Assembly (NCBI RefSeq): GCF_000009705.1
Contig: NC_003272.1
Location: 3,900,001-3,932,000 of the forward strand
DNA: 32,000 nt
Reading direction: 5' to 3'
From: Nostoc sp. PCC 7120 = FACHB-418
GTDB taxonomy: Bacteria; Cyanobacteriota; Cyanobacteriia; Cyanobacteriales; Nostocaceae
The translations under genes were made by a program, and so were the position numbers. Each line of letters starts with the position of its first letter. Position 1 is the first letter of the stretch. The notes beneath the pieces are model-generated. The model saw only the letters and a program-made list of their open reading frames with translations. It was not told where the DNA came from and made no database searches. This document shows, one piece after another, positions 14,423 to 31,305 of the stretch.

Positions 14423-17056
14423 ATGAAATATTATTTGTTCACAGCAGTTTTGGCGGTGACAATTCCTATAGCTGCACTGGGAAATGAAATACCAGTCAAT
14501 AATAATCCAGTTAATCAGGTAGAAAATGCCAAGTTAACTGAAATCAAAGCCATTAATCTTGAGGAAGTTGACAAAGGAATCAGCATCATCATAGAAACAG
14601 CTAGTGGAGAAATTCCTGAAGGGGAAATTATTGAAAATAGCACCGACGTAGTTATTAAATTAAGCAATGTCAAACTAAATCTTCCTGACGGTAATAACTT
14701 CATCAAAGATAAACCCATTCCGGGAATCAATTCTCTCACCGTTACTCAACAATCTGCAACAGAAGTAGAAATCAAAATCGTTGGAGATGGAACATTACCA
14801 AACGTTGAACAACGAGAAAGTCAAAAGGGACTGGCGTTGAGTGTCATACCCACACCTAAAGCAGTAGCAGCAGAAAATACCATAGAACTCAACGTCGTGG
14901 GAAACCGTGACGCAAATGAAACAGCACCGGCTAACGTCACCATTATCGATAGGGAACAAATAGAAAAACAACAAGCGCGAGATGTCAGAGACTTATTGCG
15001 TTATGAACCAGGGATTTCCGTACCCTATGACAGTCGCGGTGGTTTACAAGGAATCAACTTGCGAGGGTTGAGTGGAAATCGCGTCAATCTGCAAGTAGAT
15101 GGTATTCGTCTACCTTATGAATATAGCTATGGTGCTACTCGTTTGGGTAGAGACTTTGTAGATATTGAAACCTTAAACGCTTTAGAAATTTTCCGAGGAA
15201 ATAATTCCGCAGTATTAGGAAGTGACGCGTTAGGTGGAACAGTTAATTTTGCAACCGCTAGAACTGGAAGTCTATTAGAGAATATTGGTAAAGACTCTTA
15301 TACAAGTGTTCGCGCACAATATAGTAGTAAAGATAGCGGTTTTGTCGGAACATTTGTCCAAGCAAATCGGTTGGATAATATCGACACTCTATTTATCTAT
15401 ACCCGACGTGATAGTGGGTCACTAAAAGTAGCTGGAGGAAACAGCATTTATCAAGATGACCAAGATAGAACCCGCAATAACTTTCTAGGAAAATTAACTT
15501 ATAACTTTAACCAGGAAAGTTTTCTGGAATTGACTGGAGAATATTTCAACAACATTACTGATAGTCGATTCTCCACCGCCAACTTACCAGGAATGGTGTT
15601 TGAAGCTTCAACTCAAGATTTACAAGAAGAAGTCACAACAACTCGTAGCAGATTTAGTCTGGGATATCAATACGATAATCCCAACAGCAAATCATGGTTG
15701 CAATTTGTCCGTGCGAATCTTTATTACCAAAATGCAATTATCGAAGAAGATAGTAACAGGAGTGTCCGCAGTGCGGGAACTATCAGAACAGAAGCAGCAG
15801 ATAAGGATTTAACCGACAGAATTTTTGGGGCAAATGTTCAACTCCGCAGTGATTTTAATATAGGGGATATCAAAAATAGTCTCACCTCTGGGTTAGAAAT
15901 TTCCCACAACTACAACGAACGCAATTACTTTAACTTTATTACCACCACAGGCACAAGAGTAAATGCAGCCGGATTCCCCCAGAAAGACTTTCCTGATAGC
16001 GATACTTTCCGCCTTGGTACTTACTTACAAAATGAAATTTCCTTTGGTGATGGTAAAGTAAAATTAATCCCTGGCTTGCGCTTTGATGTTTACAACTTAA
16101 GCACAGCAAATAATCCTGAATTTACACAAAAACAGCAAGGCGTTGACGCGGTAAATTATTCCACATCTGCACTTTCTCCCAGCTTAGGAATTGTCTATGA
16201 ACCATCTCCAGGATTAACATTATTTAGTAGATATTCCCGTGGGTTTCGTCCCCCACTATATAGCGAACTAAATTTTGCTTTTCGCGCTGATATTCCATTA
16301 CGCCCCCATAAAGGTATTTCTAACCCCAATTTACAAGCAGAAACCAGCAATAACTTTGAACTAGGATTACGTAGCCGTTCCCAACAATTTGATTTTGATA
16401 TTACTGGCTTCTACAACCGTTATAGAAACTTCATTGAACCATCTGTATTTGTTGGTTTTGACACCAATGATTTCGGGACATTTAGAACGGCTGGAAGAGC
16501 GATTCCTTTCCAGATTTTTCAGGCGCAGAATATACCAGATGCAGAAATTTTTGGCTTAGAAATTAAAACAGCTTACCGATTTAGTCCAGAACCTGGTGGT
16601 TTTAGCTTAAAAGGCGCTTTAGGTTGGCAAATTGGTAATGATTTAACCAAAGATATCCCCTTAACTACGATTAATCCTTTACAAGCAGTTATTGGTTTAG
16701 GATATCAGTCCCCAAATGATACATGGGGTGCAGAATTAATCGGTACTTTTGTCGCCCAAGCTAGAGAACAAGCATTAGTTGATGACCAAACTAGTGTACA
16801 GAATGGTGGACAAGCAACCAGAAAAATCGATTTTTATGAACCTGATGCTTATACCTTAGTGGATCTTGTTGGTTACTACAATATCAATCCCCATCTCACA
16901 TTAACGGCTGGTGTTTATAACATCTTCAATACTGAATATTATCAGTATGCGGATGTGCGGACAATTAATAGTAATGCTACCGCTTTTGCGGCGCAACGGG
17001 GGCGTTATGCTCAACCTGGGACAAATTTCGCTATTAGTTTGAATTGGAGATTTTGA
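14423..17056 (+). CDS. TonB-dependent outer-membrane receptor with N-terminal AMIN-like extension (possibly heme type)
   Basis: 877 aa. Signal peptide, an extra domain of about 140 aa, plug motifs ('IDREQIEKQQARDVRDLLRYEPGI', 'NLRGL..NRV...VDG'), 'GFRPP', 'NPNLQAE', and a C-terminal '...FAISLNWRF' ending in an aromatic residue. SD 'gaggag' precedes the ATG. Confidence 0.9.
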   Translation: MKYYLFTAVLAVTIPIAALGNEIPVNNNPVNQVENAKLTEIKAINLEEVDKGISIIIETASGEIPEGEIIENSTDVVIKLSNVKLNLPDGNNFIKDKPIPGINSLTVTQQSATEVEIKIVGDGTLPNVEQRESQKGLALSVIPTPKAVAAENTIELNVVGNRDANETAPANVTIIDREQIEKQQARDVRDLLRYEPGISVPYDSRGGLQGINLRGLSGNRVNLQVDGIRLPYEYSYGATRLGRDFVDIETLNALEIFRGNNSAVLGSDALGGTVNFATARTGSLLENIGKDSYTSVRAQYSSKDSGFVGTFVQANRLDNIDTLFIYTRRDSGSLKVAGGNSIYQDDQDRTRNNFLGKLTYNFNQESFLELTGEYFNNITDSRFSTANLPGMVFEASTQDLQEEVTTTRSRFSLGYQYDNPNSKSWLQFVRANLYYQNAIIEEDSNRSVRSAGTIRTEAADKDLTDRIFGANVQLRSDFNIGDIKNSLTSGLEISHNYNERNYFNFITTTGTRVNAAGFPQKDFPDSDTFRLGTYLQNEISFGDGKVKLIPGLRFDVYNLSTANNPEFTQKQQGVDAVNYSTSALSPSLGIVYEPSPGLTLFSRYSRGFRPPLYSELNFAFRADIPLRPHKGISNPNLQAETSNNFELGLRSRSQQFDFDITGFYNRYRNFIEPSVFVGFDTNDFGTFRTAGRAIPFQIFQAQNIPDAEIFGLEIKTAYRFSPEPGGFSLKGALGWQIGNDLTKDIPLTTINPLQAVIGLGYQSPNDTWGAELIGTFVAQAREQALVDDQTSVQNGGQATRKIDFYEPDAYTLVDLVGYYNINPHLTLTAGVYNIFNTEYYQYADVRTINSNATAFAAQRGRYAQPGTNFAISLNWRF

Positions 17057-17067
17057 AGAGATTAGTC

Positions 17068-17955
17068 ATGAATAAACATCTGATATTATGGGCGATGTCT
17101 TTTTTGGTGACTGTTAATTTATGGGGTTGTGCAAATAATCCAAATAACTCTACAGCCACAGATACAAAACAGGCTGCATCGCAACCAATCAAATTAGCAA
17201 CCAGGGTAGTAGCATTGACACCGTTAGGTGCAGATTTAATCTACAACTTGGATAAAAGCAAACTATTGGCTGTTCCGGCTGGCAGATATACCGATGTAGT
17301 GGCTAAAGCTAAATTTGCTCAATTACCGAGAATTGGCGGGAGGGGTAACATTAACTTAGAAAAAATTGTGGCTTTAAAACCAGATTTAGTCATTGGTTCA
17401 GAAACATTTCAAGGTCAGATTTTAAATAAACTCAAGGAATTAGGAATTAACACAGTTTCTCATGAAACGAGGAGTTGGCAAGATTTGAAAACTTTGACAG
17501 AAGATTTAGCTGGACGTATCGGTGCTGACCCGAAACCAATTTTAGATAAATACCAATCCTTTATAGCTCAAATTCCCGAAAATGGTAAATCTGTTTTAGT
17601 ATTAGTTAGTACTCAGCCAACCTTATCCCCTAATAGAAATAGTTGGTCTGGTGATTTATTAGAAAAATTTCAATACAAAAATGTCACAGGGGATTTACAA
17701 GCTAATACTAGATTTCAAGGTTATTTAACTCTCTCACAAGAGCAAATATTGGCTACTAATCCAGAGAAAATATTTATCATGGAATCTGATAATGTGAATC
17801 CAGATGATTTTAAAAAACTACCTTTTTGGAATCAACTAAAAGCAACACAAAATAACCAAGTCTACATTTTCCATCATGATGGTTTAATTAGTCCTACTAG
17901 TGTGAATACAGTAGAAGAGGTGACTAATAAATTACGTCAGACAGCATTGAATTAG
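17068..17955 (+). CDS. Periplasmic binding lipoprotein of the iron-chelate/heme ABC transporter (FecB/HmuT/BtuF fold class)
   Basis: Lipobox 'NLWGC'. 'RVVALTPLGADLIY', 'LKPDLVIGS', 'NPEKIFI'. I prefer ATG 17068 to the TTG 17044 start in the track, which overlaps the receptor gene. Confidence 0.85.
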   Translation: MNKHLILWAMSFLVTVNLWGCANNPNNSTATDTKQAASQPIKLATRVVALTPLGADLIYNLDKSKLLAVPAGRYTDVVAKAKFAQLPRIGGRGNINLEKIVALKPDLVIGSETFQGQILNKLKELGINTVSHETRSWQDLKTLTEDLAGRIGADPKPILDKYQSFIAQIPENGKSVLVLVSTQPTLSPNRNSWSGDLLEKFQYKNVTGDLQANTRFQGYLTLSQEQILATNPEKIFIMESDNVNPDDFKKLPFWNQLKATQNNQVYIFHHDGLISPTSVNTVEEVTNKLRQTALN

Positions 17956-18022: not shown

Positions 18023-18110
18023 TATTAGCCGTTATGCAATTTAGGCGCGCCTTAGCTGAGTACCACAAGTCAGAATAGCCTAAGGCGTAGCAATGGTCTG
18101 TTTTTTACTA

Positions 18111-18133
18111 TTACCAATTACCAATTACCAATC
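18111..18133. repeat. Tandem heptamer ACCAATT (2 perfect copies plus 1 imperfect)
   Basis: The same unit as at 7278-7305. It lies 21 nt beyond the stop of the metK-like gene. Confidence 0.8.
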
Positions 18134-18153
18134 CCCGCAGATATCCTGAAATT

Positions 18154-19338
18154 TTAAAACAAACCTACCTTATCTATTTTTTCCCAAGGTAAATCGATAT
18201 CCTGTCTACCTACATGACCATAAGCCGCTAGTTTTCTATAAAATCCCCCTTTAGTTAATGAGGGTAGATGTCTTAAATTAAATTGTTTCAGAATACCTGC
18301 TAAACGAAAATCAAAGTGCTTTTCTAATAAGACGGTGATATCTTCATCTGAGATTTTACCTGTTCCAAAAGTTTCTACTTGGACGCTTACAGGTCTAGCC
18401 AGTCCGATAGAATAACTTAGTTGTACTTCACATTCATCAGCTAAGTTTGCAGCGACTACATTTTTAGCAGCATAACGGGCGACATAAGCACCTACTCTAT
18501 CTATTCTGATGGGGTCTTTACCACTTAAAGCCGAACCACTGTGTTTGGAATATTCACCATAGGTATCTATGGCGTTTTTTCTCCCAGTTAAACCAGAATG
18601 TACCGCCGGGCCGCCAACTATAAAAGGGCCATCGGGATTAATAAATATTCTAGTTTTTTCATCTGGTTTAATTTCTTCATCAGCAAATACAGGATAAATT
18701 ACGGTTTCTCTAATATCATCTTGTAATTGCTTTAAGTCTGGTTTTCCCGGTTTATTTTGGCTGGCAATTACTGTAATACTATGGATTCTATAGGGTAGGC
18801 GATTTTTATATTCAACACCTACTTGAGTTTTGCCATCAGGAGTTAAGTAACTTAAAAGATTTTGTCTTCTAACTTCACTAATTTGTCTAGCTAATTTGTG
18901 TGCCAACCAGATTGGTAATGGCATGAGGGTAGAGGTTTGATGACAGGCAAAGCCGAAGACTGTGGCTTGGTTGGTAACAGTAATTTGTTCTATTTCTGCA
19001 TCTGATAGTTTGTGTTCATTAAATAAGTGATATGGATCAGGAGGCAATTCTTTTAGGCTGGTCAATATACTACAATTTTTACCGTTAAATTCCATTTGTT
19101 CATAACCAACCTGATCAATAACTTGTCTGGCTATGTTTGTAAAATCAACATTAGTATTAGGTTCAAATCTGGCGGCTATAAATACAATACCTGTGGATGC
19201 AGCGCATTCGGTAATGACTCTAGCGTAGGGGTCTTGTTGTAAAAAGCGATCAACGATCGCATCACTAATCTGATCACACAGTTTATCAGGATGCCCCTCA
19301 GTTACAGATTCAGATGTAAACATGAAATCTTTTTTCAT
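18154..19338 (-). CDS. metK: S-adenosylmethionine synthetase family protein, divergent paralog
   Basis: 394 aa. 'FTSESVTEGHPDKLCDQISDAIVD', 'TPDGKTQV', 'GLTGRK', 'SGKDP..IDR', 'AAYGHVGR' match MetK. The universal 'GAGDQG' is replaced by 'TVTNQA' and 'GGPMGD' by 'GGPAVH'. Confidence 0.85.
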   Translation of the reverse strand: MKKDFMFTSESVTEGHPDKLCDQISDAIVDRFLQQDPYARVITECAASTGIVFIAARFEPNTNVDFTNIARQVIDQVGYEQMEFNGKNCSILTSLKELPPDPYHLFNEHKLSDAEIEQITVTNQATVFGFACHQTSTLMPLPIWLAHKLARQISEVRRQNLLSYLTPDGKTQVGVEYKNRLPYRIHSITVIASQNKPGKPDLKQLQDDIRETVIYPVFADEEIKPDEKTRIFINPDGPFIVGGPAVHSGLTGRKNAIDTYGEYSKHSGSALSGKDPIRIDRVGAYVARYAAKNVVAANLADECEVQLSYSIGLARPVSVQVETFGTGKISDEDITVLLEKHFDFRLAGILKQFNLRHLPSLTKGGFYRKLAAYGHVGRQDIDLPWEKIDKVGLF

Positions 19339-19348
19339 AATTCACCTT

Positions 19349-19390
19349 GGGGATTGGGGATTGGGTACTAGGGATTAGGGACTGGGGAAT
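19349..19390. repeat. STRR1-type heptamer array (GGGGATT/AGGGACT..., complement of CCCCAGT-like units)
   Basis: Six consecutive heptamer units. The array spans the ATPase stop codon and the 36-nt ATPase/metK-like spacer. Confidence 0.75.
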
Positions 19391-29846: not shown

Positions 29847-30653
29847 CTAATCATGCCTTGAAGAGTCAGGCATAATTGTTTCTTGGAGATTGACCCCATT
29901 GAGGTTAGCACCGTTCAAATTAGCCCCCCTAAGATTAGCACCGCTCAGATTAGCCCCTGCTAAATTAGCACTGGTGAGATTAGCCCAAGCTAAATCAGCG
30001 CCTCTCAAGTCAGCTGCGGTTAAATTTGCCCGAAATAGGTACGCACCTCCTAGATGTGCTTGATGTAAATTAGCTTTGTAGAAGTTGGCTTTGTAAAGGT
30101 AAGCTCCCATCACTTCGGCTTGATATAGATTTGCCTCGCTGAAATCAACCGCAATGAAATTAGCAGCGATAAGATTCGCAAAACAAAGGTTAGAGCGGAT
30201 GAGTTTTGCTCCAGCCAAATCAGCATCTCTCAAATCAGCACTACTGAAATCGGTACCAATTAAGTTAGCCTCCGTCACAATAGCACCCCGGAGATTGGCT
30301 CCACTAAAATCAGCACCAATGAAATGAGCATGGCTCAAATCTGCGTGTGTAAGTACGGATTGGCTCAAGTTAGCCACACTAAAATTAGCGGCACTCAAGT
30401 TAGCTTCACTGAGTTTTGCGTGGTGGAGATTGGCGCTACTGAGGTCAGCACCACTGAGGTTAGCACGTATAAGCAGAGCGCGACTTAAGTCTACTCGGCT
30501 TAAGTTAGCGCCTGCAAGATTTGCGCCTCTGAGGTTATTTTCTTGTAGGTTTGAGGTGCTGAGGTCTGGTTCAATTTGCGGATTTTTTTGTCTCCACTCA
30601 ATCCATCTCACTGCACCTGCTCGTAATAAAGCTAGATGCTCTAGATTTGCCAT
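29847..30653 (-). CDS. Pentapeptide-repeat protein
   Basis: 268 aa from ATG 30653 (SD 'aaggag'). More than 40 consecutive A(D/N)LxX pentapeptides ('ANLSGANLRGANLNGANLNG...'). Confidence 0.9.
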   Translation of the reverse strand: MANLEHLALLRAGAVRWIEWRQKNPQIEPDLSTSNLQENNLRGANLAGANLSRVDLSRALLIRANLSGADLSSANLHHAKLSEANLSAANFSVANLSQSVLTHADLSHAHFIGADFSGANLRGAIVTEANLIGTDFSSADLRDADLAGAKLIRSNLCFANLIAANFIAVDFSEANLYQAEVMGAYLYKANFYKANLHQAHLGGAYLFRANLTAADLRGADLAWANLTSANLAGANLSGANLRGANLNGANLNGVNLQETIMPDSSRHD

Positions 30654-30663
30654 TGTCTCTCCT

Positions 30664-31305
30664 TTACTCCTGGCGACCACTATGGGAATTGCTCCGGCCA
30701 GCAACGCTTTCTATGGCTGCTCTCGCTCCCGCCGCACCAGCGAGAATATCCCTTTCTTGCCCACCTAGATACAACCTGCCAAAGCTACCGACAGCTTGAA
30801 CTTCTAGGATGTTAATTGAGGCTGCTTTCTCGGCTTCATTGGCTGCTAAAGCAGCATAAGCAGCAGGCTCAACTTCTAATACATATAGAGTTTGCCCGGC
30901 TAGGAGTAGCTGTCCTCGTCGCGTCCGGTTAATCAATTGGGTTTGGTAAGCGTCTATATTCCTAATAATCTGGCTGGAAACAATTCGCGGTTTAATACAC
31001 TCTTCTCTTTTGACTCCTAGAGCCGCCAAAATCGCTTGACCAGCAGCTCGCGTTTCGCCTTGAGAGCCTGAATGTATTTCTAATAGACCGTACAATCTCT
31101 CAACTACTTGCACTCCAGGGCGGACAGAAGCAGCTTTGAGGGCTATGTCGGTAATTTTATTAATCTCGATACCAGGAGAAATTTCAATCCACAGTGATGT
31201 ATCTCCTGGTAATGGCAAGAAACCTTGGGCTACTGTTCCTATATAGGCCGCGTGTTGTGGTTGCAGGCTGTCGAGAAATACGAAACTGCGTAGTTCTATT
31301 CCCAA
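30664..31305 (-). CDS. ccmP: Carboxysome shell protein CcmP (tandem BMC domain)
   Basis: 213 aa with TTG start (SD 'ggagag'). '[39 protein letters not shown]', '[49 protein letters not shown]' closely match CcmP as I recall it. Confidence 0.8.

Follow-up and report, generated by a model that had tools for sequence, protein, structure and literature searches.

The window analysed here is a 32,000-nucleotide (nt) stretch of Nostoc sp. PCC 7120 = FACHB-418 (contig NC_003272.1 of assembly GCF_000009705.1, forward-strand positions 3,900,001 to 3,932,000), and the subject of this work is a gene on its minus strand whose product resembles MetK, the S-adenosylmethionine (SAM or AdoMet) synthetase, and which lies directly behind the gene of a P-type ATPase. 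Our preferred reading, to which we assign a probability of roughly 0.55, is that this protein and its relatives, hereafter called H-type, are not SAM synthetases and act as dedicated soluble, triphosphate-binding partners of a P2-type cation pump tagged with a CoBaHMA domain. The components of this reading carry different weights. That the protein is a dedicated partner within an ATPase cassette is close to certain, and that it is not a SAM synthetase is very probable; the specific model of a triphosphate-binding or -hydrolysing accessory subunit of the pump has slightly less than an even chance of being correct.

All three Pfam domains of MetK (PF00438, PF02772 and PF02773) were matched by the open reading frame (ORF), with E-values from 5e-36 to 5e-56, and the TIGR01034 metK equivalog model gave a score of 395.8 bits against a cut-off of 309.4. 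An AlphaFold2 (AF2) model of the protein (pLDDT 88.8, pTM 0.90) superposed in Foldseek on solved MetK structures with TM-scores of 0.87–0.93; as modelled, the three-domain MetK fold is intact. The domain matches, the equivalog score and the fold thus bear out the MetK-like character that an earlier note, made from the letters of the window alone, had recognized in this ORF.

Residues were mapped using HMMER alignments of the window protein to the solved MetKs 7r3b, 3iml and E. coli 7r2w (Table 1). The alignments paired 'qigagdqgmmfgya' with 'qitvtnqatvfgfa', 'ggpqgdagltgrk' with 'ggpavhsgltgrk' and 'hgggafsgkd' with 'hsgsalsgkd'. The replacements of GAGDQG by TVTNQA, of GGPxGD by GGPAVH and of HGGGAF by HSGSAL, which the earlier note had read by eye, were confirmed in this way, as was its numbering of Asn123 (E. 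coli Asp118) and His247 (Asp238; codon at window positions 18598-18600); the by-eye alignment had not shifted. Changes that it had not mentioned are Glu55 to Arg57, Gln98 to Leu98, Lys269 to Arg278 and Phe262 to Leu271. As a result, the ligands of the methionine alpha-amino and carboxylate groups, Glu55, Asp238 and Gln98, are absent, their positions being occupied by Arg57, His247 and Leu98. The residues kept in the window protein are His14, Asp16, Glu42, Asp163, Lys165, Phe230, Arg244, Lys245, Lys265 and Asp271 (E. coli numbering), which include the catalytic acid His14 (His16 in the window protein), the Mg ligands Asp16 (Asp18) and Asp271 (Asp280), and Lys265 (Lys274).

Table 1. Window coordinates of the MetK-like gene, its diagnostic sites and the upstream pump gene.
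Feature	Position	Strand	Basis or remark
MetK-like gene (H-type)	18154..19338	(-)	ATG start, TAA stop, 394 amino acids
GHPDK motif, retained; His16/Asp18 = E. coli His14/Asp16	19282..19296	(-)	Conserved at 90% or more in H-type and canonical sequences alike
Arg57 replacing Glu55 (human Glu70)	19168..19170	(-)	HMMER alignment
Leu98 replacing Gln98 (human Gln113), first gating-loop residue	19045..19047	(-)	HMMER alignment
TVTNQA replacing the GAGDQG loop, Asn123 for Asp118	18964..18981	(-)	HMMER alignment
GGPAVHSGLTGRK: His247 for Asp238; Arg253/Lys254 (Arg244/Lys245) kept	18577..18615	(-)	
HSGSALSGKDPIRIDR: Gly258 to Ser, Gly260 to Ser, Phe262 to Leu271, Lys269 to Arg278; Lys274/Asp280 kept	18496..18543	(-)	
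Spacer, ATPase stop to MetK-like start, 36 nt	19339..19374	(-)	Shine-Dalgarno-like AAGGTGA, CCCCAAT-type repeats
P2-type (SPCA/SERCA/LMCA1-like) P-type ATPase, 995 amino acids	19375..22362	(-)	Pfam and PDB matches
Putative CoBaHMA (HMA_2) domain, ATPase N-terminus, about 100 residues	22063..22362	(-)	Signature H6-x3-G-R-x-R-x-K

Taylor & Markham (J Biol Chem, 1999) are said to have assigned Asp16 and Asp271 as Mg2+ ligands and Asp118 and Asp238 to the methionine site, and their Asp-to-Asn mutants reportedly lost about 10^3 in kcat of AdoMet synthesis and much less in the hydrolysis of tripolyphosphate (PPPi). The earlier note had listed these four aspartates together as catalytic or metal-binding; metal binding applies to the Mg ligands Asp16 and Asp271, and Asp118 and Asp238 are methionine-site and not metal residues. 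In human MAT2A (hMAT2A), the main-chain N of methionine is bound by Glu70 and by Asp258 of the partner subunit, Asp258 also contacts the ribose O3', and Gln113 binds the main-chain O; when the methionine site or the gating loop is mutated, AdoMet is no longer made and the tripolyphosphatase activity persists (PMC6850014). Human Glu70, Asp258 and Gln113 correspond to E. coli Glu55, Asp238 and Gln98. Based on these residue roles, the metal/triphosphate half of the bifunctional site is retained in the window protein, and the methionine half is lost and reversed in charge. As judged from the alignments, the remodelled methionine pocket goes from acidic to basic (Glu55 to Arg, Asp238 to His, Lys269 to Arg, Gln98 to Leu). 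MetK is among the most conserved of enzymes, and a pocket of inverted charge next to an intact triphosphate site amounts to a natural experiment in fold repurposing.

H-type proteins are annotated as methionine adenosyltransferase in all sources. On the TIGR01034 model the window protein scored about 145 bits below a canonical cyanobacterial MetK (540.7 bits), and other H-type proteins reached 324–343 bits; the cut-off fails to separate the two families and, because scores of 324–396 bits exceed it, H-type proteins are filed as metK everywhere. Metabolic models and metK copy counts inherit this mislabel, and the family occurs in at least seven phylum-level groups. Since the methionine-site, GAGDQG and gating-loop features fail, the H-type proteins should not be filed under EC 2.5.1.6. 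The passed cut-off, the full fold and the uniform annotation are what would be seen if the gene encoded a true second SAM synthetase isozyme, with another mode of methionine binding and lying near the pump by chance or for a local supply of SAM. We regard this as very improbable, because none of the three ligands of the methionine backbone is kept and the charge is reversed, the score is far below that of canonical cyanobacterial MetK, and Taylor & Markham (1999) are reported to have found that the D238N exchange alone costs the E. coli enzyme about 10^3 in kcat.

To characterize the family, 171 H-type sequences were compared with 78 canonical MetK sequences, positions being given in E. coli numbering. 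Position 238 is Asp in 78/78 canonical and His in 171/171 H-type sequences, and position 269 is Lys in 78/78 canonical versus Arg in 170/171 H-type sequences. Likewise, position 262 is Phe in 71/78 and Leu in 170/171, position 270 is Val in 76/78 and Ile in 162/171, and position 55 is Glu in 75/78 canonical sequences and basic in 161/171 H-type sequences (R 126, H 27, K 8). The gating loop (Gln98, Ser99, Ile102, Val106), Gly258 and Gly260 are near-invariant in canonical MetK and variable in H-type. Each position of GAGDQG is conserved in 78/78 canonical MetKs, whereas the loop varies across the H-type set, position 118 being N in 66, V in 29 and D in 23 of the 171. By contrast with these differences, His14, Asp16, Glu42, Asp163, Arg244, Lys245, Lys265 and Asp271 are conserved at 90% or more in both sets. 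The diagnostic H-type changes, as read from sequence comparison, are Asp238 to His, Lys269 to Arg, Phe262 to Leu and Glu55 to a basic residue. The earlier note had put its emphasis on Asp118 and Asp238; the second of these is diagnostic, and the Asp118 to Asn change does not define the family and was ruled out as the key change, the position being variable and Asp being kept in 23/171 members.

Two other candidate changes were dropped: a switch to GTP through Thr227 to Asp236, the position not being conserved across the family, and a new transition-metal site formed by Glu44, Cys45 and His247 in place of the K+ site, strand geometry suggesting that Cys45 faces away. The Methylococcaceae H-type members (L057, L058, L060; Methylumidiphilus, Methylotetracoccus) have SGP, not GGP, ahead of the His.

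The conservation pattern also has to be weighed against another kind of chemistry, in which an adenosyltransferase would use a new nucleophile: Arg57, His247 and Arg278 would hold a substrate other than methionine, either anionic or lacking an amine, that attacks C5' of ATP in the manner of MetK, and the resulting new adenosylated metabolite would be used or exported by the cassette. Such an enzyme would account for the conservation of His14, the Mg ligands, the ribose ligand Asp163 and the PPPi-binding Arg/Lys residues, as well as for the near-invariance of the pocket substitutions, which points to coordinated remodelling and not to decay; the window protein additionally keeps Lys165 and Phe230. 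The adenine-site residues Thr227 and Phe230, together with Lys165, are however not kept family-wide, and variation extends to the gating loop, which closes over the substrates; we consider this alternative unlikely, also on account of the composition of the cassette described below.

Among the 120 closest database proteins, which are 79–100% identical to the window protein and come from Nostocales, Chlorogloeopsis, Fischerella and Pleurocapsa/Hydrococcus, His occupies the Asp238 position in 120/120. An exhaustive search of 1.84 billion cluster representatives identified many more clusters, at 38–58% identity, with the same signature. In a neighbour-joining tree, the H-type proteins formed one clade outside all canonical MetKs, the cyanobacterial ones included. 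With a profile search and by scanning 185,579 species genomes, the family was traced to Cyanobacteria, Nitrospirota/Thermodesulfovibrionales, Binatia, Acidobacteriota, Thermodesulfobacteriota (Desulfomonile, Syntrophobacteraceae, Desulfobacteraceae, Geobacteraceae), Gammaproteobacteria (Methylococcaceae, Chromatiaceae, Thiohalorhabdus) and Alphaproteobacteria (Roseomonas, Hyphomicrobium, Rhodospirillales). A recent duplication of a cyanobacterial metK was ruled out as the origin, given that the clade lies outside the canonical MetKs and spans many phyla. The description of the gene in the earlier note as a MetK paralog is therefore accurate as to a divergent MetK-like protein and falls short in that the protein is not a one-off but a member of a multi-phylum family. 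On sequence and tree evidence, H-type is an undescribed, widespread and monophyletic sister family of canonical MetK. Every entry returned by a PDB sequence search was annotated as SAM synthetase, a statement about annotation and not about the His signature. Full-text literature searches, which did not extend to the primary CoBaHMA paper (Gaschignard 2024, Proteins), turned up no account of the family or of the linkage to the ATPase, and the literature searched on CoBaHMA or DUF5132 made no mention of a MetK-like gene.

Canonical MetKs were fetched with a cyanobacterial MetK-like probe sequence, all matches being real database proteins; those retrieved are 414–442 amino acids long and have GAGDQG and GGPxGD. 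Canonical and H-type proteins co-exist in Pleurocapsa sp. PCC 7327 (P0366 and P0094, both on the 4,986,817-bp chromosome), Tolypothrix campylonemoides VB511288 (P0341 and P0082) and Hydrococcus rivularis NIES-593 (P0302/P0381 and P0095). Besides its H-type protein, the last of these appears to encode two canonical MetKs, P0302 and P0381, with 87% identity between them. The SAM synthetase annotated in Anabaena PCC 7120, seen in a proteome and in the FurC regulon, is alr4124. The window protein shares 49–50% identity with the canonical MetKs of these cyanobacterial genomes. Between the same pairs of genomes, the H-type proteins are 84.8% identical versus 81.4% for MetK, and 85.0% versus 83.8%; between Cyanobacteria and Nitrospirota, H-type proteins are still 72–75% identical. 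Since the conservation of the H-type protein equals or exceeds that of MetK and its identity across phyla is high, it is functional and not decaying, and the MetK-level conservation together with the invariant His (120/120 and 171/171) argues that the substitutions are due to neither chance nor decay. These identities indicate strong purifying selection on the H-type protein.

The gene order around the MetK-like gene was examined by hand and by a genome scan. In 9/9 hand-checked contexts with enough upstream DNA, across phyla, the ATPase gene lies directly upstream on the same strand. This order is shared by Trichormus variabilis, Pleurocapsa PCC 7327, Chlorogloeopsis, Roseomonas and Thiohalorhabdus and recurs on five metagenomic contigs whose H-type members are only 41–58% identical, while the other flanking genes differ from genome to genome and are unrelated. 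The linkage scan covered 80 loci, 54 H-type and 26 canonical, the canonical metK genes picked up by the same patterns serving as the control. An ATPase C-terminus was found directly upstream on the same strand in 53/54 H-type loci and an ATPase-MetK-like fusion in the remaining one, giving 54/54, as opposed to 0/26 canonical loci (Clostridia, Chloroflexi, a Crocosphaera). A difference of this kind is not chance, which further disfavours a second SAM synthetase that happens to lie near a pump. Because the gene is always directly behind the ATPase gene, the MetK-like protein probably works with the pump. The earlier note had proposed placing the protein on a phylogeny and checking its linkage to the ATPase; the protein falls in a separate clade, and by the scan counts the linkage is essentially universal. 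Its view that the gene is unlikely to encode the housekeeping AdoMet synthetase, and could encode a pseudoenzyme/regulator or an enzyme of altered chemistry, gains support from the alignment, the canonical MetKs in three cyanobacterial genomes, the monophyly and the linkage.

The fused locus was found in Richelia sp. SL_2_1 (L070:4177-6828), where a single ORF of 884 amino acids carries the ATPase to about residue 897, without the last transmembrane (TM) helices, and continues in frame into MetK-like residues 128-394. This arrangement is an internal deletion, due either to symbiont gene decay or to an artefact of the metagenome-assembled genome; it was rejected as an exception to the linkage, the in-frame deletion joining the ATPase to the MetK-like gene.

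The distance from the ATPase stop to the MetK-like start was -4 (an ATGA overlap) in 23/53 H-type loci and rarely exceeded 100 nt, and such spacing is typical of translationally coupled partners. Neither a promoter-like nor a terminator-like site was called in the 36-nt spacer of the window, and Rfam gave 0 matches in the window, with no SAM or other riboswitch upstream. Pairwise identities of the ATPase and its MetK-like partner correlated with r = 0.83 (48 gene pairs), on which basis the two genes evolved, and probably moved, together. The linkage of 54/54, much of it translationally coupled, predicts a new accessory subunit of the pump. Heptamer-type tandem repeats flank the MetK-like gene at 19339-19374 and about 18100-18150; on the minus strand these are CCCCAAT/AATCCCC upstream and GGTAATT x3 downstream, and we take them to resemble the STRR repeats of heterocystous cyanobacteria.

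The obligate and tight coupling of the two genes, taken together with the loss of the methionine site, the gating loop and the glycine-rich HGGGAF and GAGDQG loops, would also suit a catalytically dead pseudoenzyme that scaffolds or gates the pump as a structural or regulatory subunit without turnover, and accessory-subunit precedents such as KdpC and Na,K-ATPase beta speak in its favour. Conservation of the Mg/triphosphate ligands and of His14 across phyla is nonetheless hard to explain without binding or chemistry, and conservation is higher in the MetK-like protein than in the ATPase; we therefore judge a dead subunit to be improbable.

A DUF5132 protein is also encoded at most H-type loci, along with one or two HMA_2 proteins that stand alone and carry a hydrophobic tail. 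The genome scan located DUF5132 and CoBaHMA genes at H-type loci only and at 0 canonical loci. The usual order is DUF5132 - CoBaHMA(TM) - [CoBaHMA-]ATPase - MetK-like - (CoBaHMA, opposite strand), and the window represents a minimal cassette consisting of the ATPase with its putative fused CoBaHMA domain and the MetK-like gene. Only membrane proteins recur in the cassette, without recurring biosynthetic, methyltransferase or SAM-using genes; this composition speaks both against an adenosyltransferase and against a second SAM synthetase. PADLOC gave no match for either the MetK-like protein or the ATPase, leaving an anti-phage defence role unsupported. In Thiohalorhabdus methylotrophus (L016:925-6278), the full cassette lies directly 3' of pstS-pstC-pstA-pstB-phoU and a histidine kinase, a neighbourhood that may indicate a phosphate link in this one genome.

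The ATPase matched the Pfam domains E1-E2_ATPase, Cation_ATPase_N/C and Hydrolase, and its closest PDB matches were SPCA1 (8iww, 1e-140) and Listeria LMCA1 (6zhf). In 49 MetK-linked ATPases, TGES, DKTGT, TGD and GDGxND are invariant, and the equivalents of SERCA Glu309 (PEGLP), Asn768, Glu771, Asn796, Thr799 (Ser/Thr) and Asp800 are invariant in 49/49; the SERCA residue numbers are assigned from SERCA motifs. On the basis of the invariant catalytic and ion-site motifs, the protein is predicted to be an active, Ca2+-like P2-type cation pump; with a Glu908 to Gln change and missed equivalog cut-offs (both given below), its specificity for Ca2+ is putative. A cation-type pump with a Ca-like ion site would be an odd exporter of an organic product, which again disfavours an adenosyltransferase whose product leaves through the cassette.

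The N-terminus of the ATPase scored 26.8 bits against PF19991, under the cut-off of 30, and gave an E-value of 9.3e-12 with a custom hidden Markov model (HMM) built from the stand-alone cassette CoBaHMA proteins; its 'H-TGVKGRARYKV' signature was matched by eye to the proteins of loci L010, L012 and L016. PF19991 (HMA_2) is equivalent to CoBaHMA (bioRxiv 10.1101/2024.07.07.602159), a domain that folds like HMA and is marked by a conserved His in beta0 and basic residues in beta1/beta2; its conserved patch of basic residues has been proposed to bind anionic partners. In Microcystis, ccyA and the gene of a Ca2+/H+ exchanger have flanking CoBaHMA and DUF5132 genes that are expressed together with them, the ccyA locus being the marker of intracellular amorphous CaCO3 (iACC) (bioRxiv 10.1101/2024.07.07.602159). 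Given the Ca2+-ATPase-like ion site and the occurrence of CoBaHMA and DUF5132 at the Microcystis ccyA/cax locus, the cassette can tentatively be placed in divalent-cation (Ca2+-type) handling. It ties CoBaHMA and DUF5132, so far discussed around cyanobacterial CaCO3 genes, to a defined pump. Methylococcaceae were recently reported to have gained the calcyanin gene ccyA from cyanobacteria (bioRxiv 10.64898/2025.12.07.689555). The H-type cassette is also found in Methylococcaceae (L057, L058, L060), and this overlap with ccyA-acquiring taxa may be a coincidence.

Comparison with known systems helps to delimit the H-type proteins. With canonical MetK/MAT (EC 2.5.1.6; E. coli 1RG9/7R2W, MAT2A) they share the fold (the TM-scores given above; 44–50% identity), the GHPDK, GLTGRK and SGKD..DR motifs and the metal/triphosphate residues; unlike canonical MetK, they have lost the GAGDQG and HGGGAF loops, have an unconserved gating loop and are encoded behind a P-type ATPase. 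The upstream pump has the catalytic motifs and putative equivalents of most ion-site residues in common with the P2A/P2C Ca2+(/Mn2+)-ATPases (SPCA1 8IWW, LMCA1 6ZHF, SERCA), from which it differs in its putative N-terminal CoBaHMA domain, its TM8 Gln and His and its MetK-like gene partner. The CoBaHMA and DUF5132 families are common to the H-type cassette and the ccyA/cax neighbourhood of Microcystis, and both stand near Ca2+ transport genes; unlike the Microcystis locus, the cassette here is without calcyanin (ccyA) or cax. Work on ccyA and CoBaHMA in relation to intracellular CaCO3 is said to include that of Benzerara (2022) and Gaschignard (2024), and Anabaena/Nostoc are not known to form iACC. 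P-type ATPases with accessory subunits include KdpB with KdpFAC, Na,K-ATPase with beta/FXYD and the P4 ATPases with CDC50. These have a non-pump partner that is encoded with the pump and required by it, and may serve as a conceptual analogy; their partners are membrane proteins unrelated to MetK, in contrast to the soluble enzyme fold of the H-type partner. We know of no characterised P-type ATPase with an obligate MetK-like partner or a soluble partner of enzyme fold.

For a triphosphate-binding partner of the pump, the following mechanism can be envisaged. The ATPase and MetK-like genes would be co-transcribed and translationally coupled, and their products would cooperate, probably within one complex. 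Binding of a Mg-triphosphate ligand (ATP or PPPi), and probably its hydrolysis, would be retained by the MetK-like protein, with an anionic group held in the remodelled pocket instead of methionine. The protein could thereby couple nucleotide or polyphosphate status to the pump, or process a ligand for it. A wider proposal, which we regard as doubtful, is that the H-type protein would be a new type of P-type ATPase subunit that controls or feeds the pump, and that the four-part cassette (DUF5132, CoBaHMA membrane protein, pump and MetK-like protein) would form a widespread bacterial machine that sequesters divalent cations or confines them to compartments, akin in mechanism to the carbonate-biomineralisation loci, or else that the protein would make a new adenosylated metabolite. 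The cassette is present in genetically tractable organisms, for example Anabaena/Nostoc.

Several observations weigh against a triphosphate-binding pump partner. Operon linkage by itself is no proof of a complex. The window protein passes the NCBI metK equivalog cut-off, and residual SAM synthesis is compatible with its sequence; moreover, the co-existence of both types was seen in the three cyanobacterial genomes that were checked. Lys165 is kept in 99/171 and the adenine-stacking Phe230 in 63/171 H-type sequences, and because neither is family-wide, even nucleotide binding becomes uncertain once the entire family is considered. In TM8 of the pump, Gln takes the place of SERCA Glu908 in 45/49 partner ATPases and a His is found at +3 in 49/49 (residues 905 and 908 of the window ATPase), changes that could reflect a cation specificity other than that of the classical Ca2+-ATPases. 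The NCBIfam Ca-ATPase equivalogs were missed (PMR1-type 578 vs 798, SERCA-type 552 vs 703 and PMCA-type 418 vs 507 bits), and with no such cut-off reached, ion-site residues are the sole basis of the calcium assignment. Lastly, custom HMMs identified no DUF5132 or stand-alone CoBaHMA gene in the window.

Other features of the window lie on both sides of the cassette. At 14423-17955, a TonB-dependent receptor (AMIN + Plug + barrel, 877 amino acids) and a periplasmic binding protein (303 amino acids) are encoded between the MetK-like gene and FecE/FecCD-type ABC genes. This pair is absent from the otherwise syntenic Trichormus variabilis locus (L001), where the ABC ATPase gene directly adjoins the MetK-like gene, and it seems that a siderophore-uptake pair has been either inserted or deleted. 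On the minus strand, a 213-amino-acid ORF at 30664-31305 gave a sub-threshold BMC-domain match (21.3 bits vs a cut-off of 24.5), and a pentapeptide-repeat protein is encoded beside it at 29847-30704, the two stop-to-stop ORFs overlapping by about 40 nt.

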